DNA of 19,501 nucleotides from the UHGV virus genome UHGV-0193858. One strand, 5' to 3'. Source of the stretch: a virus. Shown piece after piece: positions 1-19,501 of this stretch. The stretch's first letter is position 1, and the number at the start of each line of letters is the position of its first letter. The position numbers were made by a program, and so were the translations under genes. The notes under the pieces were generated by a model, which was given only the letters and a program-made list of their open reading frames with translations, did no database searches and was not told where the DNA came from.

Positions 1-158
1 ATTGTTTTCACGTCTACGCCTGTCACATCAGCCACCTGCTGCCGGGTAGCGCCGTTCTCCAGCATTCTGCGGCACCGCTCCACCACTTCTTCAGTCATTA
101 TCCGGCGGCGGCCGCCGACTCTCTCCTGCTCCATCGCTGCGGACCGACTCGGATGCAT
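1..158 (-). CDS. Partial CDS: serine-recombinase (Hin/Gin/Pin-type) C-terminal HTH domain; runs off the window start, no catalytic domain found upstream
   Basis: Minus-strand translation from ATG at 158..156 reads MHPSRSAAMEQERVGGRRRIMTEEVVERCRRMLENGATRQQVADVTGVDVKT. The GGR linker followed by G.TRQQVA...GV.VKT matches the invertase C-terminal HTH as I remember it (Hin: GHPRQQLAIIFGIGVSTLYRYFP). An in-frame stop lies at 198..200 and no resolvase catalytic motifs appear in any frame of 160..970. Confidence 0.35.
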   Translation of the reverse strand, partial: MHPSRSAAMEQERVGGRRRIMTEEVVERCRRMLENGATRQQVADVTGVDVKT

Positions 159-168
159 TCGGCAAATT

Positions 169-969: not shown

Positions 970-978
970 TTTTTATCC

Positions 979-3042: not shown

Positions 3043-3050
3043 CGCCTTAC

Positions 3051-3338
3051 GTGTTTAAACGGTTAAATAAGAGAATGATTTTAATAAATAAATACACCCC
3101 TCCAACGCAGGAAGATTTAGCCAGACTGAAATCCGCACTAAATTACTCCGGAAACCAAATGGCAGGGCTCGCAGGTGTAGCCAGCGATAGCCAATGGCGG
3201 AAATACACTGGCGGAGAGAGCCCCAGGGTAATGTCAAGACACATACTGTTTTATATTGCAGCTCAGCTTGTTCTGTCTGATGAGCAACTTAACAATGTAA
3301 TAAATAAAATGCGCGATATTGGCGCGGAGATAAAATAA
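3051..3338 (+). CDS. Small XRE-like helix-turn-helix protein (putative regulator); start uncertain (GTG at 3051 or ATG at 3075)
   Basis: 95-aa ORF. The segment SGNQMAGLAGVASDSQWRKYTGGE resembles a Cro/CI-type HTH. Its stop overlaps the acyltransferase start (ATAATG), suggesting translational coupling. Confidence 0.4.
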   Translation: MFKRLNKRMILINKYTPPTQEDLARLKSALNYSGNQMAGLAGVASDSQWRKYTGGESPRVMSRHILFYIAAQLVLSDEQLNNVINKMRDIGAEIK

Positions 3339-4429: not shown

Positions 4430-5192
4430 ACTAAACCATTCGCTCCTTTTCCTGATGAATAGTTACCATTCCCCCCGGCACCACCTGAGCCGGGGAAACC
4501 GCCATCATCGCCAGAACTACCGAAGTGGCCATTGCCACCCGTTGATGAAAATGCAGATCCTCCAGCCCCGCCAATAAAAGCATCAGAACCATAATACAGA
4601 CCACCTTGAGATATTCCGCCAGTAATATTTAAAATGTTCCCGCCACTTCCGATACCTCCAGCAGGAACTGTAGCCCCGCCACCACTCCCTCCAGTAGCTG
4701 AGATTAAACTCCCGAACCTTGTATCACCACCATTCCCGCCTTTAGACGAGACACCAGCAGCAACAGCACTGCCACCAGTACCTATCGTCACAGATATAGT
4801 TTCGTTATCAGAAATATTAAATAACCCTTCCGAAAATCCACCAGCACAACCTCCAGATGCGCCCACACTAACTGGAGCATTCTGGCCACCTCCCCCGCTC
4901 CCCAAACTTTCACCCGCACTCTTTTCGTCCCTTTAGTTGGAGTGTAAGTCCCTGACTTAGTAAAGGTGACAATATTAAGCAGGCGACCGCCACCAATCGC
5001 TTTAAGAACCTGTGAATCATCATCAGGATCAAGCTCAAGCCCCGCGCCCTCAACAACGTTTACCAGCTCACGCTGAAAGGTATTCATCATCTCAGCATTA
5101 ATTATTGTCGGTGAAATACCATTAGCGACATTACCATTAGTGTATTCACCATTAGCATCAGCGGTGTCAGTTGTACTGCCAACTTTTCTCAT
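4408..5192 (-). CDS. Tail fibre protein (conserved N-terminal domain plus glycine-rich C-terminal domain), split between two frames by a 1-nt frameshift in a G-run
   Basis: ORF 4788..5192 encodes an N-terminus typical of Mu/P2-type fibres (FQRELVNVVEGAGLELDPDDDSQVLKAI ... TFTKSGTYTPTKGTKRVRVKVWGAG). ORF 4408..4905 encodes the Gly-rich continuation in another frame and has a TTG start. Both frames are open across 4788..4932. Adding one G to the GGGGG run (plus-strand C5 at 4892..4896) gives a continuous 261-codon ORF reading ...VKVWGAGGGGGQNAPVSVG... Confidence 0.6.
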
Positions 5193-5218
5193 ATAAACCT
5201 TCTTTTTAAATGTCTGAA

Positions 5219-5893
5219 TTAAACGTAACCGGAAGCGATATCAAATATTTTGGCAAACTCAGGCGTGACTTCGTAAACCCCCTCATCGTTAAAACCGAAA
5301 TAGATATAGCCGAATTTGACCAGGGTGTATGAGGGGGCGAGGGCATTAATCCGGCATTCAAGCTGACGATTACCCCAGGAACGTAATGGATCGCCACAAT
5401 AACTCAGACCCGCACGGGCATAAGTTATCGTTGTGTCTTCCGCCTCTACCAGCCAGACAAATGGCCAGTCATCCCCATTTAGCCCGTCACCACATACCGA
5501 TAAGCCAGCACGCGCCTGCCGGTATTCCTTAATCGAAATCGTATAACCCATTGCTGCGGCAATACTGATGAAATAGCTCTTTGACTGCCCGCCGGTACTG
5601 ATGAGTTTCGATACAATGTCAGACTGACGCTTCGCAATCGTATCCACTTCGCCAATCGAGCAATCATCAGGTAAGCCGAGTGTTTTTTCCCACTCGGTGA
5701 GCATAATCGTCGCAGTTTTTGGAAAGGCACCGCGCAGCAATGCAAGTGCGTCGTTATCACTTCGCTGGAAACTGGCCGCAATGGCCCGCAGTACAGCGGC
5801 CTGAACAGCTTTTGGATCCCGTGTCCACGCTCGGCCGGTGGGGATAAGCGCCTGCAGTGCCTTCTGATAATCGTCTGTTGAGAAAAGGCTCAT
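5219..5893 (-). CDS. Phage tail protein, DUF2313 family (Mu gp48 / P2 gpI / e14 YmfQ-like)
   Basis: 224 aa, position directly after the J-like gene, and the N-terminal pattern LIPTGRAW ... LTEWEKTLGLP typical of this family. Its start overlaps the J-like stop. Confidence 0.7.
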   Translation of the reverse strand: MSLFSTDDYQKALQALIPTGRAWTRDPKAVQAAVLRAIAASFQRSDNDALALLRGAFPKTATIMLTEWEKTLGLPDDCSIGEVDTIAKRQSDIVSKLISTGGQSKSYFISIAAAMGYTISIKEYRQARAGLSVCGDGLNGDDWPFVWLVEAEDTTITYARAGLSYCGDPLRSWGNRQLECRINALAPSYTLVKFGYIYFGFNDEGVYEVTPEFAKIFDIASGYV

Positions 5894-7038
5894 GTGTAGT
5901 TCACCTCACCACGAACAGCCAGCTCCCCAACTCCCGGCTCAATATTCGCAGAAGGCGACACAAGGATATAACCTGAAGTACCGGCAACATCCCCTATCGC
6001 ACGGTTGAGATCTGAAAGGTAAATTTTCCCTGTGCCGAGCGGGTTAGCGGATTCAAACAATACCCCGTCAATCGCATCAGCAATGGCCGCAGTCGTTGCG
6101 CTGTCGGCATCAGATATCCCGCCTATTTCAAAATCGATAACGCGTTCGATGGGAGAGCAGACATAGTTAAGGGAAGTAACCGGCGCAAGCGGATACATAT
6201 AATCGGCAACTCTCCCCTGATCCCCGGTGGCTTTTACAGCCCCCCACTCTTCCAGTTGAGAGACACCGTCAGTTCCTACAGGGAATCCATGATTGGTTTT
6301 ATCATCGCCGTCGCACATGATGTAAATCACCACGGTACCCGGCCCCATCCCCCGGCGCCGTATCCATGCCCTGGTAATCCCCGACACGGATAAAGCCCAG
6401 CTTTTATAATCAGTGTCACTCCCGCCCTGCGGGGGATTCTGATACGCCAGCAGACCACGTAATCGGAAATCCTCTTCACTTTCAATGTTGGCGCCGCCGG
6501 TGGCGGGCTCAATCAGCGTAACCGAGCTGTCTATGCCGGGGGCATTAGCATCCAGTGTAAGAATGGTGCCAGCATCGGCATTTCCGGAAGCGCCTCCTCC
6601 TGTCACATCGTCTGTGATATCCGGCAAAACCGCTGTTACAGCAACCGACGCACTGCCAGCAGTGTTTATCGTTATGGCATCATCGGTTGTGTACTGGTAA
6701 CCATCATCACGGTTTAACACCGCCCCTTTTGACAGTGTTTTCCCCGGCGTTCCGGTAACGGTCGCCGCCGGAGAGCGTGCTGCCGTTGCGGCTTTTCGGT
6801 AAATCTGCTTTAGCGCCATCCATCCGGCAAGCCACTCATCGGTAGAGGTGAAAGGCGTGCTCTGACGGGCAATATAATCCAGGTAGGCGTAGTGCAGATG
6901 GGCCATGCCCGCATCCATATCAGCGAGCACCTTAAGGTTGCCAAACCGTAACAGCGCGCCAACACTTTCAAGCTCTGCCTGCATAAACTGGCGATTCTCC
7001 TGCCGGAGCTCGCTCAGTGTTTTCCGCTTAAATGGCAT
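5890..7038 (-). CDS. Baseplate J-like protein (Mu gp47-like)
   Basis: 382 aa, placed between the gp46-like and DUF2313 genes, with overlapping stop/start codons on both sides as in Mu-type baseplate operons. Confidence 0.75.
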   Translation of the reverse strand: MPFKRKTLSELRQENRQFMQAELESVGALLRFGNLKVLADMDAGMAHLHYAYLDYIARQSTPFTSTDEWLAGWMALKQIYRKAATAARSPAATVTGTPGKTLSKGAVLNRDDGYQYTTDDAITINTAGSASVAVTAVLPDITDDVTGGGASGNADAGTILTLDANAPGIDSSVTLIEPATGGANIESEEDFRLRGLLAYQNPPQGGSDTDYKSWALSVSGITRAWIRRRGMGPGTVVIYIMCDGDDKTNHGFPVGTDGVSQLEEWGAVKATGDQGRVADYMYPLAPVTSLNYVCSPIERVIDFEIGGISDADSATTAAIADAIDGVLFESANPLGTGKIYLSDLNRAIGDVAGTSGYILVSPSANIEPGVGELAVRGEVNYT

Positions 7039-7477
7039 TATTCAGTTGCTCCCATAGCCAGAAGAATTTGAACTCCTGCCAGTCCCCCGCCGGCGGCAAA
7101 TACCGGATGATGAGGTTCAGCCTATTCGGGAAAACAATCTCTGACTGAGCCTCTATCGCTGCTGCAATACCATCCGACTTCATCCAGGCCAGAGCCTCTT
7201 CGGCATAATCTTCAGCTCTCATCGCCACTTCGCGCGTCAGTTTTTCACGCCGCAGTAGCCACAGCCTTGAGCCAATATTCCGGTCGTTGTCCAGATCCCC
7301 CCACCAGCCGCGGCGGTCAGTTCCTTCATAATCATCATCAGCGCGCGCCAGTCCGTCAGTAAACAAACTGATAATTATGGCCGTGTGCATATCATTCTCA
7401 GATGTCAGTACGCCGTTACCGGTTTGCCAGTCAGCATGAATGGCATCCACATCCCAGAATGAGGAAATATCACTCAT
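7028..7477 (-). CDS. Baseplate protein, GP46 family (Mu gp46 / P2 gpW-like)
   Basis: 149 aa, with N-terminal W..DL....GDL and a TAIIISLFTD segment as I remember for GP46-family proteins. Position between the V-like and J-like genes. Confidence 0.65.
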   Translation of the reverse strand: MSDISSFWDVDAIHADWQTGNGVLTSENDMHTAIIISLFTDGLARADDDYEGTDRRGWWGDLDNDRNIGSRLWLLRREKLTREVAMRAEDYAEEALAWMKSDGIAAAIEAQSEIVFPNRLNLIIRYLPPAGDWQEFKFFWLWEQLNNAI

Positions 7478-8055
7478 ACCTGACTCTCTGTTTTTTCGCT
7501 TATGATCGTGCTATCGCCGGACTGAACTTTTTTAACGTCATGGTCATGATCGTTGTGAGCATCCCGCAGCGCTTTGAGCGTTGAATTGTTCGTCTCGCAG
7601 TTATCGATGATGTCACCCGTCACCAGGAGTTTGGGGGTAACCAGCTTTACCTGTTCCGTTGCCGTCGCGGTGATGTTTCTGGCATTATTGATCTCTACAT
7701 CTTTGCCTTTCGCATCAATGAAAATTCCCTCCTCGGTCAGATGAATATTCATCCCCTGCTGGTTATAGACCACGGTTTCGCCTGGCTTAAGCCCGGTATA
7801 CCGGAAGCTTTGATGGTTAGAGGCAATGACGACAGGACTGGAGCGGTCCCCGCCGAGAAAGGCAATAAGCACATCCGATCCCGCCGGTAACCCCGATGAA
7901 AAACCAAAATCAGAGAGCCGTGGGGCGCTGGCCACTTCCAGCGGAGTCTGGTACTGGATTTCCTGCACAACCCCGCTATCTTTCTGCGTGGTAATACGGC
8001 CAATGCCCAGCATGCCGGCGATGCGCGTGGCCGATTTCTTTAAATTTTGATTCAT
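7474..8055 (-). CDS. Baseplate assembly protein V / central spike (Mu gp45-like)
   Basis: 193 aa, size and position after the hub gene, and a C-terminal histidine cluster (HNDHDHD) reminiscent of metal-binding spike tips. Confidence 0.65.
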   Translation of the reverse strand: MNQNLKKSATRIAGMLGIGRITTQKDSGVVQEIQYQTPLEVASAPRLSDFGFSSGLPAGSDVLIAFLGGDRSSPVVIASNHQSFRYTGLKPGETVVYNQQGMNIHLTEEGIFIDAKGKDVEINNARNITATATEQVKLVTPKLLVTGDIIDNCETNNSTLKALRDAHNDHDHDVKKVQSGDSTIISEKTESQV

Positions 8056-9137
8056 TGGTTTAGTCCGGGTATTTGCTGGTAGAAAGCATAAGGCTGGACA
8101 GCGAAAGCCTCCGGGGGCATCAGATAAAGGCGCGCATGGGTGCCGTCACTGTCTCTGATATAAGTCACCTCTGCGATAAGCAATTCGGTGTCAGGCAGCT
8201 GCAGACTCGGGATGTTGACCGGGATAAGCGTATTCGGCTCCCATAATTTCCCGGATTTATCGCGCCAGGAATCAATCGTCACCGTTAACTGACGGGAACG
8301 GCCGTATCGGCGGTTCATCTCCCAGTCAATCGCTCGCTGAGCCTGTTGTGAAGCCATCAGTGTACTTTCAACAATAATGATCCGTTTTCGGTAACGCATA
8401 CTGGCCGCCTCAGGATCGCGGGCCGTCGCCAGCGTCACCGAATCATAAGCCGTATCTGGCGAGAATCCTGCAATCGGCGAAATGCTCATCGATACGCCGA
8501 CGTAATCAGAAAAGCGGTCAGCCATCGAACGGCGGTAATAAGCCTGTTCGATATTTACCCCTTCTGCGATACCGCTGGCCGCGCGCTTTGTCCCCACCCG
8601 GGTCAGAAATAAGTTACCGTCAGGCTGATCGTAATAAAGCAATGCCGACCAGCGGGAGACACGATCAAGTATTTCCTGTGGCGATTCCCCCCAGTTCAGG
8701 GAAAATTGCGGAACTTTCACCAGATCATCAACGTCTGTACTTACGCCAATGTTGTAATGGGATGCGAGGCGGGAGGCTATATCAAGCGCATTACTGTTAT
8801 TGATGACGTTATTTGGCCATTCAGCAGAGCAATCAACGAGATCTGCGCACTTACTGCGGCCTGAGGCTCTGACTTCATGGCGCGAACGGGAAATAGCAGG
8901 CGACCAGTCATCAACATACCCCGTCACTACCAGGTCGTTACCAAGCTTTACCTGACAAGGCATCCCTTCCTTTACCAGCTGCTTCTGGTCACTTCCCGGA
9001 AAATAATCCATCAGTCCCAGGTCAAAATCGGAGGGAAAACGCTCAATGCCACGGGTCACCCGCACAGAGTCCCATCCTTCAATGATTTTTCCGCCCACTG
9101 TCAGGGAGACAATATCCTGATCATTATCCGTACTCAT
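8052..9137 (-). CDS. Baseplate hub / tail protein (Mu gp44, P2 gpD-like)
   Basis: 361 aa, lying immediately upstream of the V-like, gp46-like and J-like genes in Mu order. Called from position and size; I do not recall a diagnostic motif. Confidence 0.6.
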   Translation of the reverse strand: MSTDNDQDIVSLTVGGKIIEGWDSVRVTRGIERFPSDFDLGLMDYFPGSDQKQLVKEGMPCQVKLGNDLVVTGYVDDWSPAISRSRHEVRASGRSKCADLVDCSAEWPNNVINNSNALDIASRLASHYNIGVSTDVDDLVKVPQFSLNWGESPQEILDRVSRWSALLYYDQPDGNLFLTRVGTKRAASGIAEGVNIEQAYYRRSMADRFSDYVGVSMSISPIAGFSPDTAYDSVTLATARDPEAASMRYRKRIIIVESTLMASQQAQRAIDWEMNRRYGRSRQLTVTIDSWRDKSGKLWEPNTLIPVNIPSLQLPDTELLIAEVTYIRDSDGTHARLYLMPPEAFAVQPYAFYQQIPGLNQ

Positions 9138-9520
9138 TGTCTCAACACCTTCATCGTCGTCGGCATAAATGCCGGATGCGGTACGCTGGCCTCCTGTATC
9201 AGTTCATTTGCCCGCGAGGCATCCTGATACAGGCGGTTGGCCAGTACCAGGGCAGGAACCGGCACCGCAGTATTGATTTGCATCAACTCACTCAGTCCGG
9301 ATGAAGTCTGAGCCATGGTATTCAGAAAAGCGGTTCTCACGTCCATCAATGCCGTATAAAGATCATCATCGCCACGGTCGCCCGCCAGTAGTAACGCGGT
9401 ATCCAGTTGCCCGGCCACGCGTTGAGTGATTTCTTCGGCCTCATTACGACTGGTTGGGTTGTAATCTGCAGCAGCATCCGTCATGGCTCCGGTACATAGC
9501 ACTACGATCAGCGTGTTCAT
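9134..9520 (-). CDS. Probable C-terminal remnant of the tail gene upstream of the hub (Mu gp43-like?), truncated by a deletion
   Basis: 128-aa ORF translationally coupled to the hub gene (ATGA overlap). Its frame is closed by a stop about 20 codons upstream of the first ATG. Its 5' end overlaps the 3' end of the decoration-protein ORF by 77 nt. Confidence 0.35.
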   Translation of the reverse strand: MNTLIVVLCTGAMTDAAADYNPTSRNEAEEITQRVAGQLDTALLLAGDRGDDDLYTALMDVRTAFLNTMAQTSSGLSELMQINTAVPVPALVLANRLYQDASRANELIQEASVPHPAFMPTTMKVLRQ

Positions 9521-9953
9521 GGTGCCAGCCAGTTGCTGGCTGCTTTCGGAACGCTGGTAAAGGTGCCTGGGCGCTGTCTTTCAGGAAGATGGCCAGCGGA
9601 CGTAGTGCTGTTTTCAGTTCCGGCGCAGTCCAGGAATCGTCAAAAATAATATGATTCTGGTTGAACTCGCCCATCAGGTACAGGCCGCCGGACTGATCGC
9701 CATGGGTGGAAGCGTCAACATCATCAACCAGAATGGCCGCTGGCGTCTCGCTACCATCCGTTGCGGTTTTCACACTGGCTGTATATTTGCCACTGGCGGT
9801 GATCATGCCAAGCACAGTGCCACGCTTATACACACCGCCGGTGATCGTGCCGGTGTCAGTGACCAGTTGCAGCGTACCGGCAATTAACTGATCCGGCACA
9901 AACACTGAACTCTTCATGCCAGGTGCAAAGGCATTCTGACCAAATTGATCCAT
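9444..9953 (-). CDS. Head decoration protein (lambda gpD-like) with an aberrant C-terminal extension
   Basis: The first ~125 aa resemble lambda gpD in length and pattern (TDG ... GILV ... GGLY ... W, ending ...LAIFLKDS). The last ~40 aa (AQAPLPAFRKQ...CCCRLQPNQS) have no counterpart and overlap the next ORF. Confidence 0.55.
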   Translation of the reverse strand: MDQFGQNAFAPGMKSSVFVPDQLIAGTLQLVTDTGTITGGVYKRGTVLGMITASGKYTASVKTATDGSETPAAILVDDVDASTHGDQSGGLYLMGEFNQNHIIFDDSWTAPELKTALRPLAIFLKDSAQAPLPAFRKQPATGWHHEHADRSAMYRSHDGCCCRLQPNQS

Positions 9954-10543
9954 TATTTCTCTCCTTTAATGGAGTTGTAGAGGCCGGTCATCTGGTTTAC
10001 CAGTGCCGATTTACCGTTCTCTTTCTTGCCGCCATCCGGATTCAGACGGACATCATGGCTTTCCTGCATGCGCTGATCGAGAGAGCGCCCGCGCGTTGCC
10101 TTTGGTTGCAAGGCTGGCGCCGTGGATGCCAGAACATCGATAGCGGCGGTAGAGCTCATCCCGGTATTGAATGCGAGTGAAGCGGCCAGTGACGGATTCG
10201 CCGCAGCGTGCTTACTGCCGAAGATACGGGCGCAACGTTTACGCTCGGCGGCGCGGGCATTTTTCACCGCTTTGCTTTCTTTGCGGTCATCGTCGCCGTC
10301 ATCTTCGGAATCGTCATCGTCTTCAGCCGCATCCAGGTCGTCACCGTCATCTTCAGCGTCATCATCACGATCGTCGTTTTCCGCGTCATCTTCGCGTTCA
10401 TCGTCCCCGGCATCATCTTCGCGCTCATCCTCTTCCGCGCGACGGCCTTTCGCTTTTTTGGCCTTTTTGTCCTCTTCCTCTTCGGAAGCAGTCGCGCCAC
10501 GGCCAATAAGATGAGCAAAACTAAAAGTCTTTTTCTTCGCCAT
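9953..10543 (-). CDS. Head scaffolding protein (lambda Nu3-like C-terminus) with a ~70-residue acidic Asp/Glu-rich insert; start taken at MAKKK
   Basis: The C-terminal segment AAERKRCARIFGSKHAAANPSLAASLAFNTGMSSTAAIDVLASTAP aligns with the lambda C/Nu3 C-terminus as I recall it. The ATG at 10543 lies 2 nt after the protease stop. The ORF track extends the start to 10627, overlapping the protease. Confidence 0.55.
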   Translation of the reverse strand: MAKKKTFSFAHLIGRGATASEEEEDKKAKKAKGRRAEEDEREDDAGDDEREDDAENDDRDDDAEDDGDDLDAAEDDDDSEDDGDDDRKESKAVKNARAAERKRCARIFGSKHAAANPSLAASLAFNTGMSSTAAIDVLASTAPALQPKATRGRSLDQRMQESHDVRLNPDGGKKENGKSALVNQMTGLYNSIKGEK

Positions 10544-10544
10544 T

Positions 10545-11411
10545 TCAGGCTCCTGTTTTTTCAAGTAAGTTTCTGAACGCAGCATCAGGAGGACACACCT
10601 CATCAGCCAGTCCAAGTTCCACACCATCAGCAGCCATAAAACAGGCAGCCTGAGTACTTTTGATAACCTTTGCGCTAATCCCCCGATTTCTGGCGACGGT
10701 ATTCACAAACAATTCGCCCATGGTGTTGATGTCCTGCTGAATAGCCGCCAGCGCTTCATCTGACAGCTCTCTCAGCGGTGCCCCCTCAGCCTTACGGGAA
10801 CCGTAGGTGATGATGGTGACTTTGAGGCCGTCATCTTTTATCCGCTGGGTCCAGTCAAGGTGCATAGTGATCACACCAACTGAACCCACACCACCGGTTC
10901 GGGGAACAGAAATCCGGTCCGCCGCACTGGCAATCGCATAGGCGGCGGAATAGGCGCTTTCCGTCAGAATGGCATGGATGGGCTTTTTCCCGCGGGCGCC
11001 ATAAATGACATCGACCAGATCGAAACATCCGGCGACCTCGCCTCCTGGCGAATCAATATCCAGGCAGATCCCTGTAATATCGGGGTCTTCCATCGCAGTC
11101 AGGAAGGCCTGACGAATGCCGTCATAGCCTGTCATGCCACTGTATGGGCGCAGGCTACCCAGCTTCTGCACCAGGGTCCCACATATCGGGATGACAGCGA
11201 CGCCCAACACATTGTCATAACCCGGGTCGCTACGGGATTCCCGCCCCCTGTTATCGTCGTATCCATACCAGTCATCATCCATGGCAAGAGAGGATTCGAT
11301 TTTACTGATGCCAAACCGGTCCATAACGGATGCCATGATGACTTCAGCTTTACTTGGGTGCAGCGCCAGCGGTGTATTAAAAAGGCGCTGGGCCAGATGA
11401 GGTAGATTCAC
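10545..11411 (-). CDS. Prohead protease, S49 (ClpP/SppA-like) family, lambda gpC N-terminal domain-like
   Basis: 288 aa. LRPYSGMTGYDGIRQAF ... ICLDIDSPGGEVAGCFDLVDVI closely matches the lambda gpC protease domain (LQPYSGMTGYNGI ... LLDMDTPGGMVAGAFD). Confidence 0.85.
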   Translation of the reverse strand: MNLPHLAQRLFNTPLALHPSKAEVIMASVMDRFGISKIESSLAMDDDWYGYDDNRGRESRSDPGYDNVLGVAVIPICGTLVQKLGSLRPYSGMTGYDGIRQAFLTAMEDPDITGICLDIDSPGGEVAGCFDLVDVIYGARGKKPIHAILTESAYSAAYAIASAADRISVPRTGGVGSVGVITMHLDWTQRIKDDGLKVTIITYGSRKAEGAPLRELSDEALAAIQQDINTMGELFVNTVARNRGISAKVIKSTQAACFMAADGVELGLADEVCPPDAAFRNLLEKTGA

Positions 11412-13042
11412 TTTTCCTCCGGATCGGTAATTGTCTGGCTGGCGAACTGGTCCGCCTGCGCCCAGCTAGGTAATGGAAGTCCGCGCTTCAGGCAGGACTC
11501 AATTTCCCGCTGGCGCTGATCAAGTATCTCTTCCCAGTCCTCACCCACGTTTTCACCCACTTCAATTTCGAGAGTGGAAAGGCCGGCATCGAGGCCGAGA
11601 ATGGCGCCTTTTTTCTCTGCCACCGGATCAACCCATCCTCGCCCCGGCCCCATCCAGCGCGCACGGGAATACGCTGCCCGGGCATCAACAAAATCAGGGG
11701 CATCATTAGGTAGAGGTAAATCCTCGTTATCGTGAACTTCCTCCACAAAGGCCGTCAGAAGCGGCTGAGCGGTACCCATGGAGAAATCATCACGTCGGCG
11801 GGTGAGCGTTTTCCATGCCTCCAGCAAGGAAGATCGCGCAGAGCTGTAATTCACATCAGACCAGTCCTGTGTAACCTGCTGAGGAGATAACCCCGTACCG
11901 GATGAGAAATTACGCAATACTGCAGACTCGAAAACCTCAAAGTTGCTGTAAGGGCGGGCAGCGTTGACCGTTGTTATTCTCTCCCCTGGATAAAGGATCG
12001 GCATACGGGCGCCATTCTGCAGCGTCAAACGGCGATCATTATGAAACTCTGCACGACCATCCTGGTATGCTCCCAATCCCTCTTCGAAGTTTTCCCCCAG
12101 CGCGGACTGGATCATTTCGGGATCGTATGGAGACTCAATATACGCGGCGAAGATAGCATTCAGAATTGCTGCTTCCAGCTCGCTCTGGTCGTACTTCACC
12201 AGCATCTTCAGACGTTGCACTACTGGAGTCAGAATGCCATTCCCCCGATGCTGAGCTCCACGCTCATGGTCAAAGTCGTGCACAACGTGCGGGCGCCCCC
12301 ATGCGGTTTCGCGCGGGATTCGTCGCCATGTCATTGTTTTGGCGCCACTCCACCAGTCACCGATATGTGCTTCACGTATGTGATAAGCCACAGGTGCGCC
12401 GTCAGCATCAATTTCAACGCCGCCGCGGATATTCGGCATATCAAAATTCTGCTGCGGGTTACTGAGTCTGTCGGGATCAACAACCTGCACCGTCGTGGCA
12501 TAACGCCCCTTACCTGGTCCAAGGCGATCGGTGCGATACTGAAGCACCATCAGGGCATCGCCATCAATCAGCTTGTGGCGAAAGGCCAGACGCAACATTT
12601 GTGGAACGGTTAGCTTGCGCTCAACGTCACAATAACGGCCTGTGTCGTATGCCCAGGTTCTCCAGTGGGAAGCGAGTGCTTTTCCGTACTCTTCCGCCCA
12701 TACTGCGTCAAAACTTTTATTACCTGTCATCATCCGTAATACACGATAGTCAGGCTTCATGATCGGACGGAAATTGGCGCCGACCGCATTATCAAGCAGG
12801 CGAGTTATGGCACCATTGGCCCATCCATCATTTCGGACCAGATCCCGCGCACGGGAAACTATACGGTCACGGTAGATATTAATTTCGTTATCCGGTGACC
12901 ATAGTGCGGGCTGCCAGTTCGCCAGTTGATCGCTGAAGGAATCCCCGGCGTCATATGGCACCCGGCTACCGCCCGTCAACATGCTGGGTTTTGGTGCCTG
13001 ATAAGGTCTCCCGTCAGGACCAAGGATTTGCACTTTATTCAT
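11408..13042 (-). CDS. Portal protein, lambda gpB-like
   Basis: 544 aa. ARDLVRNDGWANGAI matches lambda gpB ADDLVRNNGYAANAI. Size and position between the gpW-like and protease genes. Confidence 0.85.
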   Translation of the reverse strand: MNKVQILGPDGRPYQAPKPSMLTGGSRVPYDAGDSFSDQLANWQPALWSPDNEINIYRDRIVSRARDLVRNDGWANGAITRLLDNAVGANFRPIMKPDYRVLRMMTGNKSFDAVWAEEYGKALASHWRTWAYDTGRYCDVERKLTVPQMLRLAFRHKLIDGDALMVLQYRTDRLGPGKGRYATTVQVVDPDRLSNPQQNFDMPNIRGGVEIDADGAPVAYHIREAHIGDWWSGAKTMTWRRIPRETAWGRPHVVHDFDHERGAQHRGNGILTPVVQRLKMLVKYDQSELEAAILNAIFAAYIESPYDPEMIQSALGENFEEGLGAYQDGRAEFHNDRRLTLQNGARMPILYPGERITTVNAARPYSNFEVFESAVLRNFSSGTGLSPQQVTQDWSDVNYSSARSSLLEAWKTLTRRRDDFSMGTAQPLLTAFVEEVHDNEDLPLPNDAPDFVDARAAYSRARWMGPGRGWVDPVAEKKGAILGLDAGLSTLEIEVGENVGEDWEEILDQRQREIESCLKRGLPLPSWAQADQFASQTITDPEEK

Positions 13043-13305
13043 CAGAATCTGAACCTCACTGGCTTCCGTGGCCGGGCGACAATTCCCAGTTGCGCCTGCA
13101 GCAACTGAATCAGCGCCAGCAGGTCGGCGAGAGAGCTTTGCTGATAGGAGACAGAGCGCGTCCCATCACCCTGCGTATAGGAGAATGAGACGCCACGGCT
13201 GCCGGTAGTCAGGTCGATATAAGCCTGCTGCGCTTTCTGCAGAGCGTCTCTGAGCTGCTCATCAGTCATCCCACCAGCAAGTAAGCTCGTGTTTCGGTTA
13301 AACAT
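13042..13305 (-). CDS. Head-tail joining protein, lambda gpW-like
   Basis: 87 aa, between terminase and portal. Pattern similarity to lambda gpW (DLTTGSRGVSF ... SLADLLALIQLLQAQLG versus DLMTGKRVATV ... SVSDLKKYIAELEVQTG). Confidence 0.6.
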   Translation of the reverse strand: MFNRNTSLLAGGMTDEQLRDALQKAQQAYIDLTTGSRGVSFSYTQGDGTRSVSYQQSSLADLLALIQLLQAQLGIVARPRKPVRFRF

Positions 13306-13313
13306 GGTTTTCC

Positions 13314-15446
13314 TTATTGCGGCAGGAGTTTAGAAATGTTCTTACGCTTAACAGGAGCCATAGCCTCATCCACGATGGCACCCGGTAATTCGTAATTGAT
13401 TTTTTCTTCTGGCTCGGCTGGCGCCGGCAGGAACTTATCGGGATCGGCCTGAAGGTTAGCGGCCCGAACATTGAGTTTTAATCCCATATGTTTCAGCCCA
13501 CACAACGCGGCATAGCTGTAAACGAGGCAGTCGAGTGCTTCGTTCGCCCGTCCGGGGATAGGCTCCCAGACACTGAATCGCTGACCGGCCACCACTTTAT
13601 AAACCAGTCGCTCGGCCAGCAGCTGGTTGAAATAGCCGAGGTCACGATCATCCGGGAAGTGCATATAGCCCGCACCGGCAGTACCTAAAGCTGGCGGTTC
13701 AAGATGCAGACGACCACGGACAACATCTTTCGCAGAGTTCACGCCAAGTATAATTGGCCTGAAGCTGGCTTTACTTTTCGATGTCGGTCGCTTGGTTGGC
13801 CAGACGGGGTTGCGTTTCCCACCCTGCGCAGATTCGCCCTTGATAGCCCAGACGCGGCGCCCAAGGCGATCTTTGCAGAACTCATAAACCTTTTGCGTGT
13901 GGTGACCGCCGGAGTCCATACATGCAGCCAGAATATTCAGCCCTCGCCCGTCGCCGCGTCGCCATATCTGTTTCAGGTACGCATCGAGGCGCTTCCAGGG
14001 TTCCTCAGTCTCCAGATCGCCATAAATGACGTCATGCGCAACTGACCACGATTCCTCGTCCCGCCCCCAGCCAGTGATCGTGATTTCGAATCGGTCATCC
14101 TGAGTATCGACGCCCGCAGTTAACAATGCCACGCCATCAGGAACGACGGCCGGGAAGACTTCACGGCGCGCCAGCAGGACATCAACCGGGAGCTGTTTCC
14201 CGTGGTTAGGCCGGTGCGGCAACCCCATCTGGGTGTTCCACCAGGCCTGTTCCTTATCCGGATCCCCTTTCGCATCGAGGTATTTCTTTGCAATGTCCGA
14301 TGGCTTGTCTTTTTGCCAGGGACTGAAGAGTTTTGACGCCTGGTACCCGGCGTGGTGATTATCCAGCGCCTCGGCCCCGCAGTCCGGGCAAATCGCCCGG
14401 TATACGGCATGCCGTTCCGACTCTGACCAGCGCCAGACGGCATCAACACTGCCCTCGTCTCCTTCATGCCATTTCTGGTCGTATTCCATTAATGGTGAAT
14501 GGCGGGAACCACAACATTCAAACGGTTTGGTCTGATGCCAGCGGATTGTCTGTAATGCCCGCAGACGCTCACCCTCTGACCAGCCAGCACCACAACATTC
14601 ACAATGGATCATGGCCGCTTTGGTCAGGTGCTTATCACCTTCTTTTGGCCATTGAACATGTTTGAAGAAATCAAGGAACTGTCGGTGCCCGCAATGGGGG
14701 CAAACTACAGAGGCCCGCCGCTGATCTGAATCTTCGTAACTGTCAGCAATCCGGCTTTCATCTTCGATCGTCGGCGAACAAGCCCGCACGGACAGCCAGT
14801 TAAGGCCAAATGTGGCGGTTCGCTCTTCCGCCAGAGCGATGGGATCGCCCTCACGGGTAATCGGATATTTATCCACCTCATCTGCCAGCAGAACACGGAT
14901 CGGACGGCGCGCAAGGTTATCTGGACTACCGGCGCCGGCCAGCGCCAGAAATCCGCCGGTGAAAGCTTTATACAGAATGGTTTCTTTTGAACTCTTCTGC
15001 TTTGAGTCACCTATGATGTTACGCAGAACTGGCGTTACCCTAACCAGCGGGCTGATGCGTTCTTTGGAAAACTGCTCAGCGGCCTCTTCCTTCGGCTGCA
15101 GGAGCAAAATCGGACATGGGTCGAGGTGCGCAAAATAACCAAACAGGTTTTCCAGCAGCGCGGTTTTCATTAACTGGGTACAGCACATCACGGTGATAAT
15201 GTGGACGCCCGATTCCGTCGCGGCCAGCATAGGACCGCGGGCAATTTCAACCGTTGATGTTTCCCAGTTCCCGGAGGTACTGCCAGCTTCTTTCGCCAGC
15301 TTCCGGTAGTCATCGGCCCATTGCGGGACGCTGATCCGCGGCGGCGGTGTCCACCCTTTCCGGACACTCAGTTGAAGACGCTCAATCTTCCGCTGGGTTA
15401 AACTCTGGTTCTCCGAGGACTGAGATATGTTTGTGGACATGTTCAA
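13314..15446 (-). CDS. Terminase large subunit, lambda gpA-like
   Basis: 710 aa. Contains the VVCPHCG zinc-finger-like motif (lambda VACPHCG), TAGVDTQDDRFEITITGWGRDEESW (lambda TAGIDSQLDRYEMRVWGWGPGEESW) and C-terminal RANEALDCLVYSYAAL (lambda RNEALDCFVYALAAL). Confidence 0.9.
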   Translation of the reverse strand: MNMSTNISQSSENQSLTQRKIERLQLSVRKGWTPPPRISVPQWADDYRKLAKEAGSTSGNWETSTVEIARGPMLAATESGVHIITVMCCTQLMKTALLENLFGYFAHLDPCPILLLQPKEEAAEQFSKERISPLVRVTPVLRNIIGDSKQKSSKETILYKAFTGGFLALAGAGSPDNLARRPIRVLLADEVDKYPITREGDPIALAEERTATFGLNWLSVRACSPTIEDESRIADSYEDSDQRRASVVCPHCGHRQFLDFFKHVQWPKEGDKHLTKAAMIHCECCGAGWSEGERLRALQTIRWHQTKPFECCGSRHSPLMEYDQKWHEGDEGSVDAVWRWSESERHAVYRAICPDCGAEALDNHHAGYQASKLFSPWQKDKPSDIAKKYLDAKGDPDKEQAWWNTQMGLPHRPNHGKQLPVDVLLARREVFPAVVPDGVALLTAGVDTQDDRFEITITGWGRDEESWSVAHDVIYGDLETEEPWKRLDAYLKQIWRRGDGRGLNILAACMDSGGHHTQKVYEFCKDRLGRRVWAIKGESAQGGKRNPVWPTKRPTSKSKASFRPIILGVNSAKDVVRGRLHLEPPALGTAGAGYMHFPDDRDLGYFNQLLAERLVYKVVAGQRFSVWEPIPGRANEALDCLVYSYAALCGLKHMGLKLNVRAANLQADPDKFLPAPAEPEEKINYELPGAIVDEAMAPVKRKNISKLLPQ

Positions 15447-15945
15447 TCAGCACCTCTGTCATCCTGTCCGCCGGCACATTCAGATCGGCGGCTATCAGCG
15501 GTGCCACGCGTGAAGGCCAGTTCAGCCAGGCATCACGCTGCTGGCGAAAGGCGTTAAACAGAACCTCCTCGGCGATGGCCAATTCAATTGTCTGGCCGCT
15601 GTCTTTTTCATACTGGAGCTTTGCCTGCAGGGCCATGTAATTTTCACGGATCCGCGCGGCCTCTTCCCTGGAAAGGACTGCACCTTCTGTAAGCATTATC
15701 TGGCGAACGGTTTCATCAATTTCATCGTCGCCATCATTCCGGGGTGCTGGGGCTTTTTTCTTCTTCGCGTTTGATGCCCGCGGATCTTTTCCATCACGGT
15801 TTTTCTTCAGCGCGGCATCGCTCGCCTCAACATCAATCAGGTCGCCATCCATGACGATAAACCGACCAGCCTTGATCCATCGGCCAATAGTCTTGCGATC
15901 GACGCCTGAATGTTGCGCGTACTGACTCTGGTTCATCGTGGTCAT
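15382..15945 (-). CDS. Terminase small subunit, lambda Nu1-like (winged-HTH N-terminus)
   Basis: N-terminal MNQSQYAQHSGVDRKTIGRWIKAG parallels lambda Nu1 VNKKQLADIFGASIRTIQNWQEQG. Lies immediately upstream of the large subunit, overlapping it by 65 nt. Confidence 0.75.
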   Translation of the reverse strand: MTTMNQSQYAQHSGVDRKTIGRWIKAGRFIVMDGDLIDVEASDAALKKNRDGKDPRASNAKKKKAPAPRNDGDDEIDETVRQIMLTEGAVLSREEAARIRENYMALQAKLQYEKDSGQTIELAIAEEVLFNAFRQQRDAWLNWPSRVAPLIAADLNVPADRMTEVLIEHVHKHISVLGEPEFNPAED

Positions 15946-16092
15946 GGGACATCACCTGGGACATTTTTGGGGTGGGACATTTACCTGGGACATTTTTTCA
16001 ATGTCCCACACGAATGTCCCACTGGAATAAATGGAATAATCCGTGCTGGCTCTGGCGTGGCTGGCGATCCCTTGGGGTGGGACATGGGACAC
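15946..16092. repeat. Array of about eight GGGACAY heptamers in both orientations directly upstream of the small terminase gene; candidate cosB-like terminase-binding sites
   Basis: GGGACAT at 15946, 15958, 15974 and 15987; inverted ATGTCCC at 16001 and 16014; GGGACAT at 16079 and GGGACAC at 16086. The placement mirrors lambda cosB (R sites between cosN and Nu1). Confidence 0.5.
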
Positions 16093-16192
16093 AAAATAAA
16101 AGTTTGTAGCTAGGAAAACACTGCGGCGCGCAATGCCCGTGCCTTACAAAAGTCTCAGGAAGGACCCAAACCCTATGGGGTAGGTATTCAGG

Positions 16193-16717
16193 TCATTTTG
16201 CCGTTCGAATCGCTTCCTCAATCGCCCTACTCAGCGCGCCGGGCATTAAGCCGGCTGCCATTGACCGTGAGCGGTTCATGTAGTCAAGCGTAGGCGTAAC
16301 AGGTAGAGCATCACCAAACCTCACCAGCAGCTTAGGAGCACGCTGTTTCCGCTTTGGTCTGCGCGTACCATTCGCTGAGCGCCGGGCTCGTTTCTTTTTC
16401 GCCTTCTTCGGTTTACGCCTCTGCCAGACAGCATCAACACCATTGACCTCACCTACGAACACATTCGGCTTCGCTTTCAACTGCGACAGCTTATTTCGCG
16501 GCATGTTGCCGTATTTGTTCAGTTTGATGTTCTTTGGATTGAGCAGCGCCTGGCTGTTCAGTTTATGTTCACCACCAAATTCAAAGGGTTCGAGATATTC
16601 AGCGGCGACATCGCGCACAAAGACTTTTGCGCGGAGGTTGTTCTTTCTGGCGCCAGCAGAGCCCACTGAGTTGACGGTGAACGGCGTCGGCGATTCCAGT
16701 TTTCGCCCCAGTGCCAC
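16193..16717 (-). CDS. Hypothetical basic protein (174 aa) with a Lys/Arg-rich tract, lying between the integrase remnant and the cos/terminase region
   Basis: Long open frame on the minus strand with no comparable plus-strand ORF. Contains RRKPKKAKKKRARRSANGTRRPKRKQRAPK. No family recognised. Confidence 0.4.
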   Translation of the reverse strand: MALGRKLESPTPFTVNSVGSAGARKNNLRAKVFVRDVAAEYLEPFEFGGEHKLNSQALLNPKNIKLNKYGNMPRNKLSQLKAKPNVFVGEVNGVDAVWQRRKPKKAKKKRARRSANGTRRPKRKQRAPKLLVRFGDALPVTPTLDYMNRSRSMAAGLMPGALSRAIEEAIRTAK

Positions 16718-17313
16718 CTTTTGCGCTGCGGCGATATCAGCGTGGTTATGTACCAGGTAATCCGTGTGTTGGTGTCGATAAGTTTCCTAAACCCCAGCGC
16801 GACCGCTACATAACTGATGAAGAGTACATAGCTATCTTCACTCATGCGACACCTGCAGTTAAAGCCGCGATGGAAATTGCGTATCTTTGCGCTGCAAGGG
16901 TATCTGATGTTCTTAAAATGAACTGGAATCAGATTCTTGATAAAGGAATTTTCATACAGCAAGGTAAAACTGGTATTAAACAGATCAAAGCCTGGACTGA
17001 GCGTCTTAGTGCGGCTGTGGATATTTGCAGGGAATGGGGACAGGATGGCCCTGTTATCAGGACAATGTATGGTGAGCGTTATTCATACAAGGGATTTAAT
17101 GAAGCATGGAGAAAAGCGAGAAACGCGGCTTCTGAAGAACTTGGTAGGCCACTTGATTGCACCTTCCATGATCTAAAGGCTAAAGGGATCTCAGACTATG
17201 AAGGATCTGGCAGGGATAAGCAAAAATTCAGTGGTCATAAGACAGAATCACAGGTACTTGTTTACGACAGGAAAGTTAAAATCAGCCCAACGTTGAACAA
17301 GAAAATGAGATGA
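16711..17313 (+). pseudogene. Tyrosine integrase, C-terminal catalytic domain only (about 170 N-terminal residues missing); convergent with the tRNA
   Basis: The 200-aa ORF aligns with the lambda Int catalytic half: RDRYITDEEYIAIF versus RSRLTADEYLKIY, FIQQGKTGIKQIKA versus YVEQSKTGVKIAIP, and TFHDLKAKG ... SGHKTESQVLVYDR versus TFHELRSLS ... LGHKSDTMASQYRD. No arm-binding or core-binding N-terminal domain is encoded upstream in any frame. Confidence 0.65.
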
Positions 17314-17355: not shown

Positions 17356-17425
17356 AGTGGATTTTCTCAATTTTTCTCATCGGGATGCAGGTCACTGAAA
17401 GGGAATGCTGTAAGTGTTTGAATAG

Positions 17426-17515
17426 TGGCGGAGAGAGGGGGATTTGAACCCCCGGTAGAGTTGCCCCTACTCCGGTTTTCGAGACCGGTCCGTTCAGCCG
17501 CTCCGGCATCTCTCC
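17426..17515 (-). tRNA. serU: tRNA-Ser (anticodon CGA), class II with long variable arm
   Basis: Minus-strand sequence GGAGAGATGCCGGAGCGGCTGAACGGACCGGTCTCGAAAACCGGAGTAGGGGCAACTCTACCGGGGGTTCAAATCCCCCTCTCTCCGCCA. It has a 7-bp acceptor stem (GGAGAGA/TCTCTCC), anticodon stem CCGGT/ACCGG with loop CTCGAAA, T-arm GGGGG-TTCAAAT-CCCCC and a 3' CCA. The serU symbol is from memory of the enterobacterial tRNA-Ser(CGA). Confidence 0.9.
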
Positions 17516-17757
17516 GTTCAGATGGTTGCCATGATGCCAGGAAATTTACACACAACCTTTTCAATAAGTTAGCCATCTTCAAAACTTCATTTTCTCATGA
17601 AATTTTGACATTAGCCCTTAATGATTGGCTGGGAATGCTTTCGCCTCTGAAAGGAGTTGCGAGTGCCTTTCCAGTATCGAATGGCGCTACTTTACCAGCA
17701 TGTTTTTATAGGCTCTTCATCCAGGGGTAAGGATGAAATTTAGGTGCGCACCACTTT

Positions 17758-18150
17758 TCATATTACTGGATAATCATCATCATCCTTCCCTATCCGATTG
17801 ATAACGAATGTCACTACCCCGACAACTGTAACATCATCCAGGGCCTCACCTTCCAACGCTTCACCGTCTCGTGTAATAAATGCCCGGCCCATAATTTTTG
17901 CAAAATCAGTGCCGCCGCCGTATTGAATTAAAACGGTATCTCCTTGCTTTGGTTTTACGAAGCAATCCACTACGGCATAGCCGGTTTCTGTTTGTACTAT
18001 CCGAGTATTGGGGCCGGTACCGCAGAGTGAATCAACGGTCAGACGCCGTTCAACATAGTCAGCAGCTGGCGACGGAAATCCCACGTTATAGCCCTCCGTT
18101 TGGGTTGTATAACTGGAACGTGAGCTCATCGCCTTCCTGCGTTGAGACAT
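17758..18150 (-). CDS. UmuD-like (peptidase S24 fold) protein that appears to lack the serine-nucleophile loop
   Basis: 130 aa. NVGFPSPAADYVERR matches the UmuD cleavage-site region (QCGFPSPAADYVEQR). The C-terminal part aligns with UmuD (GDTVLIQ versus GDIVIAA, FAKIM versus TVKKL, GVVTFVI versus GVVIHVV). No GDSM/GxSM motif is present; the alignment suggests about 12 residues spanning it are absent. Confidence 0.6.
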   Translation of the reverse strand: MSQRRKAMSSRSSYTTQTEGYNVGFPSPAADYVERRLTVDSLCGTGPNTRIVQTETGYAVVDCFVKPKQGDTVLIQYGGGTDFAKIMGRAFITRDGEALEGEALDDVTVVGVVTFVINRIGKDDDDYPVI

Positions 18151-18159
18151 CCCGGAATG

Positions 18160-18318
18160 TCAGTGCTCTATCCACTGGTTAGCCTGGCGCGGTGACCATA
18201 TCCAGTTAACTTTTGCGAGTTCCCGGATAAAACCGGACGTTGTCACGGTGCGACGGCCATTAGGCTCAATGACAATTGCCTGACGCCAGGCTATTTCGAT
18301 ATCTGAGTTTCGCGGCAT
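18160..18318 (-). CDS. Small protein (52 aa), first gene of the LexA-box operon; function unknown
   Basis: ATG at 18318 is preceded by a GGAGGTG Shine-Dalgarno. The 67-aa ORF-track version starts at 18363 and would include the LexA box, so the internal ATG is the more plausible start. The stop lies 9 nt before the UmuD-like start. Confidence 0.45.
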   Translation of the reverse strand: MPRNSDIEIAWRQAIVIEPNGRRTVTTSGFIRELAKVNWIWSPRQANQWIEH

Positions 18319-18336
18319 AACTTCACCTCCCGAAAA

Positions 18337-18356
18337 TACTGTTTTTATATACAGTA
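18337..18356. promoter_or_regulatory. LexA (SOS) box, perfect CTGT-N8-ACAG palindrome
   Basis: Plus strand TACTGTTTTTATATACAGTA; reverse complement TACTGTATATAAAAACAGTA. It lies 18 nt upstream of the small-protein start codon, where it would overlap the promoter -10/start site. Confidence 0.8.
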
Positions 18357-18528
18357 GATTCATTAAGAGATCTGATCAATACAGGTTCCAGCTATCAATC
18401 AGGAACACTGAGGAGGAAACCAGTCACCTTTTAGCCTCTGATATTGGTTTCACTTATTGATTATGTTGTCTATGTGCCAACTATGAACTATCTTTTCTCA
18501 AAACCTGCTACTGCAAAATGGATATAAG

Positions 18529-18654
18529 ATGTCACAGACGGACTTGCTGATTGTTGTTTTTACTCTGGGCATTTTAGCCTTTGGCTATTCCATATGGTTC
18601 ATTTCGAACAGAATACTTTGCTCTATATTTCATAGACTTACAAAGAATATATGA
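18529..18654 (+). CDS. Possible small hydrophobic peptide (41 aa, one predicted TM helix), divergent from the LexA-box operon
   Basis: ATG at 18529 reads MSQTDLLIVVFTLGILAFGYSIWFISNRILCSIFHRLTKNI. The ribosome-binding site is weak; too short to appear in the ORF track. Speculative. Confidence 0.2.
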   Translation: MSQTDLLIVVFTLGILAFGYSIWFISNRILCSIFHRLTKNI

Positions 18655-18793
18655 ATTGGGATGGTATAGACCCAAATTCATGGTCATTGCCCCTCGACGT
18701 CGGAAGGTACTTACAGATCATCTTCGCTCTTAACCTATCACATCGGCACCTACTCCATGATGTAACAGCTCAGACCAGAAATATCTGGAAGCT

Positions 18794-19411
18794 TTAGGCA
18801 TATTCTTGGAAGATAGACGAGCGCAAAGACGCACACAGCAATGATGTTATGTAGTATTTTCCCCTTGAGTGTGCCTGCTCAAGGGGGTTTTTATCGCCGT
18901 ATTGTACTGGCAAATATTTGTAAATAGTCTTCACCCCCACGCCTGTCACATCGGCCACACGCGACTGGACAGGCGGTTAGTCCGGTATGTTTCTCGCGCT
19001 ACTACTGCTTACGTTAACGTCTGGTAATGATCTAGCGGCGCGACGTAAAGCGGCGTTGAAAGCAATTATAGTGACCGGCCGGCATTGGTACTTCACACGG
19101 TTAGAATGGCTCTGAAATAAAAAAACATCTTCTGGATAGCGTTCTCTTCTACGAGCAATGATCCCCTCCACTGGAGGGGTTGATTTAACACGTAGCTCCT
19201 TCAGGTGACCCTGTTTTCGTATCAGTATCAAGTCACCATCAATATCATCATATCGAATACTCAGCAGCCTTCCAGCGCTTAAACCCGTGTGAAAAATTAA
19301 CGCCCACAAATCAGCCCATGTATCTGAGATGGAAACAAGATTGCTGTTAATAGTTAAAAATTGCTCAAAACTTATTGTTTTCTTACCGTTCACGAACAAA
19401 CCAAACTGTTT
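18794..19411 (-). pseudogene. Recombinase-like gene remnant: tyrosine-recombinase-like N-terminal part, in-frame TAA, then a Hin-like HTH segment; no ATG start
   Basis: ORF 18977..19399 (TTG start) has the pattern HTGLSAGRLLSIRYDDIDGDLILIRKQG ... DVFLFQSHSNRVKYQCRPVTIIAFNAALRRAA, like a tyrosine recombinase core but with the expected Arg and His-x-x-Arg positions altered. After TAA at 18977..18979 the same frame stays open for 60 codons (PPVQSRVADVTGVGVKTIYKYLP...). Confidence 0.4.
18861..18892 (+). terminator. Candidate intrinsic terminator (plus strand)
   Basis: Perfect 9-bp stem CCCCTTGAG / CTCAAGGGG with an 8-nt loop, followed by GTTTTT. Confidence 0.5.
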
Positions 19412-19501
19412 TCAAAGCTGAATGAATTGATTAAGCCAAACGTAACATATCAGGAAAAGTAGTGAAATCTTTGCCTTCAAGTCGCCGGGAGGTACTTGTA
19501 G

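Follow-up and report, generated by a model that had tools for sequence, protein, structure and literature searches.

The closest described relatives of the locus considered here are the humD gene of phage P1 and its counterpart in phage phiKO2, and regulation by LexA has been shown experimentally for both the lxr/humD locus of P1 and the phiKO2 locus. Small SOS-induced proteins encoded with, or 5′ of, an SOS effector in a mobile element are likewise familiar from tum of phage 186, the dinI-antirepressor operons of Gifsy prophages, and impCAB. GenBank places the P1 LexA site between lxr and humD, and the single phiKO2 LexA site between dinI and a 127-aa UmuD-like gene (gp23). Going by the title of McLenigan et al. 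1999, P1 HumD is reportedly a functional homologue of UmuD′. LexA-controlled umuD′ look-alikes of phages and plasmids can alter host mutation after DNA damage, including damage caused by antibiotics.

Here we consider a locus in a stretch of DNA of 19,501 nucleotides from a virus genome (UHGV-0193858; the whole stretch is called the window below), in which a LexA (SOS) box is followed on the minus strand by two short genes, A and B. We think it probable, though by no means assured, that this locus is a decaying copy of a cargo cassette of mobile elements with the order LexA box, A, B, and that B is a HumD-type analogue of UmuD′ that works via the SOS mutagenesis proteins of the host. The window copy is a pseudogenised remnant and of little functional interest itself. 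The cassette at large matters more, as B is usually coupled to an unstudied winged-helix gene, A, which moreover adjoins the "umuD" landmark of the IncX3 NDM plasmids, now spread worldwide.

The window copy and its gene models

The cassette in the window is a decayed remnant beside serU, situated between two truncated integrases. Downstream of it lies the tRNA-Ser(CGA) gene serU (17426-17515, minus strand), in the attachment-site region at which the cassette-bearing arm of the prophage terminates. A preliminary description of this DNA had the operon end at a tRNA-Ser gene, which is confirmed, and the cassette ends at the tRNA because the prophage ends there. On the 5′ side of the cassette is a 140-aa fragment of a truncated tyrosine integrase (18977-19399, minus strand), annotated as "site-specific integrase" in a near-identical E. 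coli locus; the other truncated integrase occupies 16711-17313. The prophage itself is defective: over positions 1-17313 of the window, genes for terminase, portal, an S49 protease and decoration proteins run straight into baseplate genes, and there are no sheath, tube or tape-measure genes. The island also carries cargo in the form of a sialate O-acetylesterase (979-3042) and an acyltransferase (3338-4429).

The window and the serU island of E. coli HS are exact circular permutations of one another: in HS, base 19501 of the window directly precedes its base 1. At the junction (17516-17560), a full tRNA-Ser with 33 nt of attR-side flank is joined to attL-side flank where GAAATTT meets ACACACAACC; none of 5,426 complete E. 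coli genomes contains this junction, the best match being 96.8% over 17411-18700. The window may come from a circular form of the island, from a tandem one, or from an assembly cycle. At attL of E. coli HS (locus L001, 8017-8153), PGAP annotates a 137-nt "tRNA-OTHER", named "tRNA-Ser" in E. coli L37, which combines the duplicated 3′ half of serU with about 60 nt of unrelated sequence and seems to be an annotation artefact produced by the att duplication.

Gene A survives in the window as its first 52 codons (18160-18318, minus strand), read from an ATG at 18318, which is preceded by the Shine-Dalgarno sequence GGGAGGTG (18331-18324), to a TGA at 18162-18160. The preliminary description listed this 52-aa ORF with a strong ribosome-binding site, and was right about the coordinates and the site, but the ORF is not an intact gene: it is a truncated pseudogene of the conserved 79-aa gene A, which encodes a winged-helix protein (phrog_3893). 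In an alignment of the loci, 7 bp (ATGTGAC) that are present in SX45, MIN9 and L37 are missing from the window and from E. coli HS, and this deletion, at about 18161/18162, generates the TGA that ends the 52-aa ORF. With the 7 bp in place, intact A runs to 79 aa, ends in ...FQLYNPNGGL and meets gene B at the junction CTA TAA C GTG GGA TTT. The deletion thereby costs gene A its conserved last 27 residues, with TFRDVSTQEGExRTFQLFNPNGGL, which are the most conserved part of the family. The former 3′ end of the gene (18086-18159, minus strand) is now out of frame, has its old TAA at 18088-18086 and contains the Shine-Dalgarno sequence of gene B, GGAGGG (18097-18092). PGAP, too, calls the identical E. 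coli HS copy of A a frameshifted pseudogene. An intact relative of A matches phrog_3893 with an E-value of 1.1e-37; the window copy ends after residue 52 and is devoid of the conserved C-terminal FRDVSxxEGExRTFxxFNPNGG.

The start of gene B also calls for revision. A 130-aa protein with the motif GFPSPAADYVE and a Val-Gly cleavage dipeptide had been proposed. Both the ORF (18150-17758, beginning 9 nt after the 52-aa ORF) and the motif are present, but the length is wrong, the real product being the 108 aa read from GTG 18084 to TGA 17758 (17758-18084, minus strand), a HumD/UmuD′-like protein of the S24 fold that ends in DDDDYPVI. In intact relatives, the stretch of the first 22 codons is shared, in a different reading frame, with the 3′ end of the 79-aa gene, and a 1-nt insertion in MIN9 and L37 breaks this extension, so that the ORF there comprises exactly 108 aa from the GTG. 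GTG 18084 sits 7 nt after GGAGGG, about 150 relatives begin with ATG-GGC-TTT (MGFPSPA) at the position of the B start, and in phage mEp390 the A/B junction reads TGATGG, stop and start overlapping. Comparison of the alleles thus shows the first 22 codons to be non-coding and GTG 18084 to be the true start, from which B begins MGFPSPA, the exact post-cleavage N-terminus of UmuD′, as does phage P1 HumD. The supposed Val-Gly dipeptide is the initiator codon (fMet) followed by Gly, and there is no cleavable leader with an Ala/Cys-Gly bond as in S24/UmuD proteins, translation beginning one codon before the Gly. A read-through or fusion protein was also considered and rejected: although the 52-aa ORF and the 130-aa ORF share a frame across the TGA, they were brought into it by the loss of the 7 bp, and in intact alleles the two genes lie in different frames. 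A Pfam search of the read-through fusion returned no match.

The LexA box and predicted SOS control

The LexA box reads TACTGTATATAAAAACAGTA on the minus strand (18356-18337), 18 nt 5′ of the gene A start, and in plus-strand orientation, TACTGTTTTTATATACAGTA at 18337-18356, it is the sole CTGT-N8-ACAG match in the window, where 0.2 would be expected by chance. It had been presented as a perfect SOS box 18 nt upstream of the 52-aa ORF; the box, its coordinates and its distance all stand, and the box itself is near-consensus. It overlaps the likely -10 region of a candidate sigma-70 promoter (18351-18379, minus strand), read by eye from the sequence, with TTGATC at 18379-18374, a 17-nt spacer and TACTGT at 18356-18351 within the LexA box; a consensus promoter scan called no promoter at the box. 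The LexA site annotated in phiKO2 is immediately adjacent to both -10 signals.

The position of the box is shared by more than 100 related loci. In a first comparison, 11 of 13 loci had a CTGT-N8-ACAG box in the same place. A subsequent genome survey comprised 80 loci from as many species, of which about 77 are true B loci; here the box is found in approximately 48 of the 55 loci that contain A, at -32 to -41 of the A start, and in 14 of the 22 loci with B only, at an equal distance from the B start. It is also present in 68 of 80 viral loci from IMG/VR. Ahead of the first gene, whichever that is, the box has been kept at -30 to -41 in phages and prophages of Escherichia, Klebsiella, Enterobacter, Erwinia, Pantoea and Cronobacter. 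A promoter CTGT-N8-ACAG box that is conserved among orthologous loci is the mark of a LexA regulon member, and its conservation across the phages and prophages of six genera supports the prediction that the cassette is under SOS control, and with it the earlier suggestion of a damage-inducible module.

The box has also been a site of insertion. In E. coli L37 (locus L003, about 3950-5240) and in IncX3/IncX1 plasmids (L098, 2179-3500; L099, 2183-3500), ISKox3 is inserted inside the LexA box 5′ of gene A and replaces its left half-site, which, judging from the sequence, should uncouple the cassette from LexA. That the same box is hit points to a common origin of these copies or to a target that ISKox3 prefers.

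Fold, distribution and possible functions of A and B

The S24 beta-barrel fold is recognisable in B, and its catalytic dyad is missing. hhalign aligns B with UmuD at 96% probability, setting Ala37 against UmuD Ser60 and following it with a 12-residue gap, and MAFFT opens an 11-residue gap at the nucleophile loop in all six divergent family members aligned. At the Ser60 equivalent the close family has A, V or T and never Ser; among 71 species-level sequences, 85% have Ala there and just 64% have the Lys. The alignments to UmuD thus bear out the reported deletion of the GDSM nucleophile segment, reveal no Ser-Lys catalytic dyad (UmuD S60/K97) in B, and support the proposal of a non-proteolytic UmuD scaffold. 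The accompanying idea of a decoy for RecA-mediated cleavage is not supported, as B starts at the post-cleavage Gly and therefore has no scissile bond. In the window allele of B, residue 42 is Phe (F42), at a position where Ser is near-invariant in its clade. This S42 was weighed as an alternative nucleophile and rejected, for it is kept solely in the Klebsiella/E. coli clade and in 39% of sequences across the family.

Profile searches gave a mixed outcome. Pfam yielded no match for B, Peptidase_S24 included, and the NCBIfam profiles fell below their cut-offs: PRK10276 scored 27.3 bits against 110, and the HumD profile (NF051876) 33.7 bits against 120, over profile positions 1-27 only, from the GTG onward. 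The phage families matched, phrog_3893 for intact A and, for B, phrog_3469 "UmuD-like protein" (E 1.1e-49, residues 1-104 aligned to positions 1-104 of a 106-position profile). Full-length homology between B and HumD is seen solely via the mEp390 orthologue, which aligns with P1 HumD over its full length at 29.8% identity (E 4e-4). By its other features B is of the HumD type: it starts MGFPSPA without a leader, has a LexA box upstream and has no umuC in cis, and the HumD-type proteins of phiKO2 and of IncX plasmids are likewise without the dyad. The arm MGFPSPAxDY is the most conserved segment of B (at least 96%), and the family further shares an ITxDGExxEG hairpin that is missing from UmuD. 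Among divergent B alleles dN/dS is 0.07-0.10, so the B family is functional; the short, loop-less form is a distinct family under purifying selection.

An alternative is that the cassette does not activate Pol V but is an SOS damper, in which B heterodimerises with UmuD/UmuD′ or occupies the RecA* groove or UmuC, and so limits mutagenesis or RecA* co-protease activity while the element is being induced or transferred. The S24 dimerisation fold, the deleted active-site loop and the very acidic character of B (median pI 4.35), reminiscent of the UmuD patch that contacts RecA, would all suit such a role, as would the frequent divergent pairing of B with phage dinI, which encodes a RecA-filament binder, across the same LexA box. 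We consider it unlikely nonetheless, because the UmuD residues of the RecA L2 pocket, Y52 and F94, are not obviously kept in B, and because P1 HumD, the experimentally studied relative, promotes mutagenesis, if the title of McLenigan et al. 1999 is taken at its word. On our analysis, a role of B as a surrogate of UmuD′ is preferred over that of a damper because of the HumD precedent and the rare links to umuC. Several points count against the surrogate role: the low NCBIfam scores of B against HumD and UmuD and its lack of a Pfam match, the UmuD residues of the RecA L2 pocket that B does not obviously keep, and the 11-12 residue deletion together with the ITxDGExxEG hairpin, which could mean a different partner.

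The genomic setting of B is recurrent. In lambdoid prophages, a LexA box followed by A-B or by B alone is situated at the end nearest att. In mEp390, Eeyore, Midgardsormr38, phiES15, AH07 and 716R3 the tail fibre genes come first, then optionally a divergent dinI, then the LexA box with A and B, and finally attP and int. The pair is thus an att-proximal cargo cassette of lambdoid phages, and the suggestion of a control module for the neighbouring island is not supported. Gene A stands directly 5′ of B in approximately 55 of the 77 or so true B loci of the genome survey, with a stop/start overlap or a gap of 1-2 nt, and B occurs without A in about 22 of the 77. Among 80 IMG/VR loci found with A, B is just downstream in 78, and in 30 of those 78 it is the last gene of the predicted prophage. 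Apart from the rearranged loci L087 and L097, no umuC lies beside a true B in about 75 genome loci or in the 80 IMG/VR loci. The statement that the operon has no UmuC partner therefore holds well beyond the window, which contains no polymerase gene: in relatives, umuC almost never adjoins B, the A-B pairing recurs, and homologues are not tied to umuC.

As for the two rearranged loci, in L097 (4854-6647) the LexA box and A precede a near full-length umuC, after which come the last 60 residues of B, and in L087 (5727-6417) A and a frameshifted B are followed by a 3′ fragment of umuC, its last 33 codons. These links may be the trace of an A-humD-umuC ancestor.

Gene A extends beyond phages. It is present on 1,095 PLSDB plasmids, mostly conjugative IncX3 blaNDM plasmids (for example L098, 3501-4099, and L099, 3501-4125), where it is 65-69% identical and stands directly 5′ of a 127-aa HumD-type "umuD". 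This protein, which is without the dyad, is the "umuD" landmark of the resistance-plasmid literature, and in NDM-5 plasmids it is truncated by IS26.

Both the phage niche and the plasmid carriage bear on the idea that A-B is an SOS-triggered antirepressor or induction-timing module, B docking on the S24-type C-terminal domain of a phage repressor. The LexA-controlled tum of phage 186 and the dinI-linked antirepressors of Gifsy prophages are the analogues, and the niche is the same, a cargo operon under LexA control that lies between the tail fibre genes and att. However, the cassette also resides on IncX conjugative plasmids, which have no phage repressor, and in phages of many immunity types; it bears no sequence similarity to known antirepressors, and it persists as an isolated remnant. 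We therefore hold a role in prophage induction to be quite improbable.

The arrangement of the genes invites comparison with type II toxin-antitoxin loci, in which B would be the toxin of about 100 aa overlapping a preceding gene for a small DNA-binding antitoxin, A. Order, sizes and overlap resemble those of such loci, and in the window the loss of A coincides with S42F in B. Yet B is a UmuD′/HumD homologue with the S24 fold and not a toxin fold, intact loci with B alone behind its own LexA box are common, and neither PADLOC nor Pfam returned a toxin-antitoxin match, making this reading extremely unlikely.

Gene A itself is predicted to have the topology H-S-H-H-S-S, and winged-helix domains are its sole fold matches. 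Pfam returned no match for the 52-aa protein, DinI included, and a BFVD fold search with A retrieved its own family only. Kinship with DinI or ImpC was rejected given the winged-helix fold and the missing match to the Pfam DinI family, and homology to the N-terminal domain of LexA was rejected at the sequence level (hhalign probability 0.1%). Searched against 1.84 billion representative proteins, the A profile found 182 clusters, all short except for a few frameshift or fusion products, with no informative domain fusion apart from one A-UmuC junction. Sporadic in-frame fusions of A with B or with the long HumD do occur, as does a deletion through which the N-terminal half of A continues into the C-terminal half of B (P0273, P0312, P0357, P0337). 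Frameshift or deletion has probably produced them all, though they would also fit a functional link of A with B. In phage HK225 (L011, 1501-1800), a 99-aa A follows dinI and the LexA box and is itself followed by a DNA invertase gene, with no B, which indicates that A can occur alone.

It is tempting to read the two genes as one LexA/CI-like regulator split in two, with A as the winged-helix DNA-binding part and B as the S24-like oligomerisation part, with its start at the Gly of the cleavage site. The fold of A, the coupling of the genes by stop/start overlap or a 1-2 nt gap, and the occasional fusions would all fit. But the comparison of A with LexA by hhalign finds nothing, A is not basic (median pI 6.8), the fusions have the appearance of frameshift or deletion products, and each gene is found without the other: about 22 of 77 species loci have B alone, with a LexA box of its own, and HK225 has A alone. 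We judge a split regulator very unlikely.

Gene A is without a counterpart in P1 and phiKO2, and so the two-gene unit may do something that the HumD precedent leaves unexplained. A possible reading, which we hold only tentatively, is that A and the loop-deleted B act together as an SOS-induced two-protein unit with a task beyond that of a plain UmuD′ for the UmuC of the host; A might, for instance, bring B to DNA, RecA filaments or a polymerase, and so control the mutagenesis or replication restart of the element. If true, the pair would represent an uncharacterised SOS effector, and a widely disseminated one, because A is carried by around 1,000 IncX3-type carbapenemase plasmids and hundreds of prophages.

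For the favoured reading, of B as a HumD-type analogue of UmuD′, we envisage the following sequence of events. In an intact cassette, LexA would repress a promoter that overlaps the box; DNA damage would remove LexA, and the two translationally coupled genes would be expressed. B would then be made directly in the already-cleaved form, with no need for RecA-stimulated self-cleavage, the Ser loop and, in many members, the Lys having been lost. It would most likely work through protein contacts with the host SOS mutagenesis machinery, where it may replace or compete with UmuD′ at host UmuC, UmuD or RecA*, as for P1 HumD, its conserved arm and dimer surface acting on host UmuC, UmuD′ or RecA*. 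The 79-aa winged-helix protein A would be produced stoichiometrically with B and may be an adaptor or regulator. In the window copy, with A truncated, the coupling to B lost and B altered by S42F, at most a solitary B could still be made.

Comparison with known systems

E. coli UmuD provides the first point of reference. The arm GFPSPAADYVE of B is identical to UmuD residues 25-35, and gene B is predicted to be SOS-regulated, as umuD is. In contrast to UmuD, B has neither the 24-residue leader nor the Cys-Gly bond; the Ser60 loop is gone, and the Lys97 equivalent is not conserved. There is also no umuC downstream of B, which is a gene of mobile elements and not of the chromosome core.

The small proteins of the 186 tum, Gifsy and impCAB loci are more distant. 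Gene A encodes a winged-helix protein, not one of the DinI fold, and has no sequence relation to them. Much closer are the IncX3 blaNDM/blaSHV plasmids, in which gene A stands directly 5′ of "umuD" with the same 1-2 nt junction, and which share with E. coli L37 the same ISKox3 insertion in the LexA box; here the difference is that the plasmid partner of A is of the long, 127-aa HumD type.

Closest of all are P1 HumD, N15 gp26 and phiKO2 gp23, with which B has in common a start at Met-Gly-Phe-Pro-Ser-Pro and the lack of a cleavable leader. As in the P1 HumD group, the LexA box is directly 5′, the element has no umuC and the carriers are temperate phages; as in P1 HumD, the C-terminal tail of the protein is ...PVI. 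The group can also dispense with the catalytic dyad, which the phiKO2 and IncX versions lack. Given the precedent of P1 and phiKO2, an SOS box ahead of a pre-processed UmuD′ homologue without umuC is of a known kind, and the architecture loses the novelty that might have been claimed for it, being the situation of P1 humD and phiKO2 gp23. Against this background, B is about 20 residues shorter than the P1 HumD group, with an 11-12 residue deletion that takes the nucleophile loop; its loop before the last strands is also shorter, and it has the conserved ITxDGExxEG hairpin. Unlike in P1 and phiKO2, neither of which has A, gene B is usually preceded by gene A and translationally coupled to it. 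The cassette is thus not a new system, and its new aspects are the loop deletion in B and the coupled gene A.
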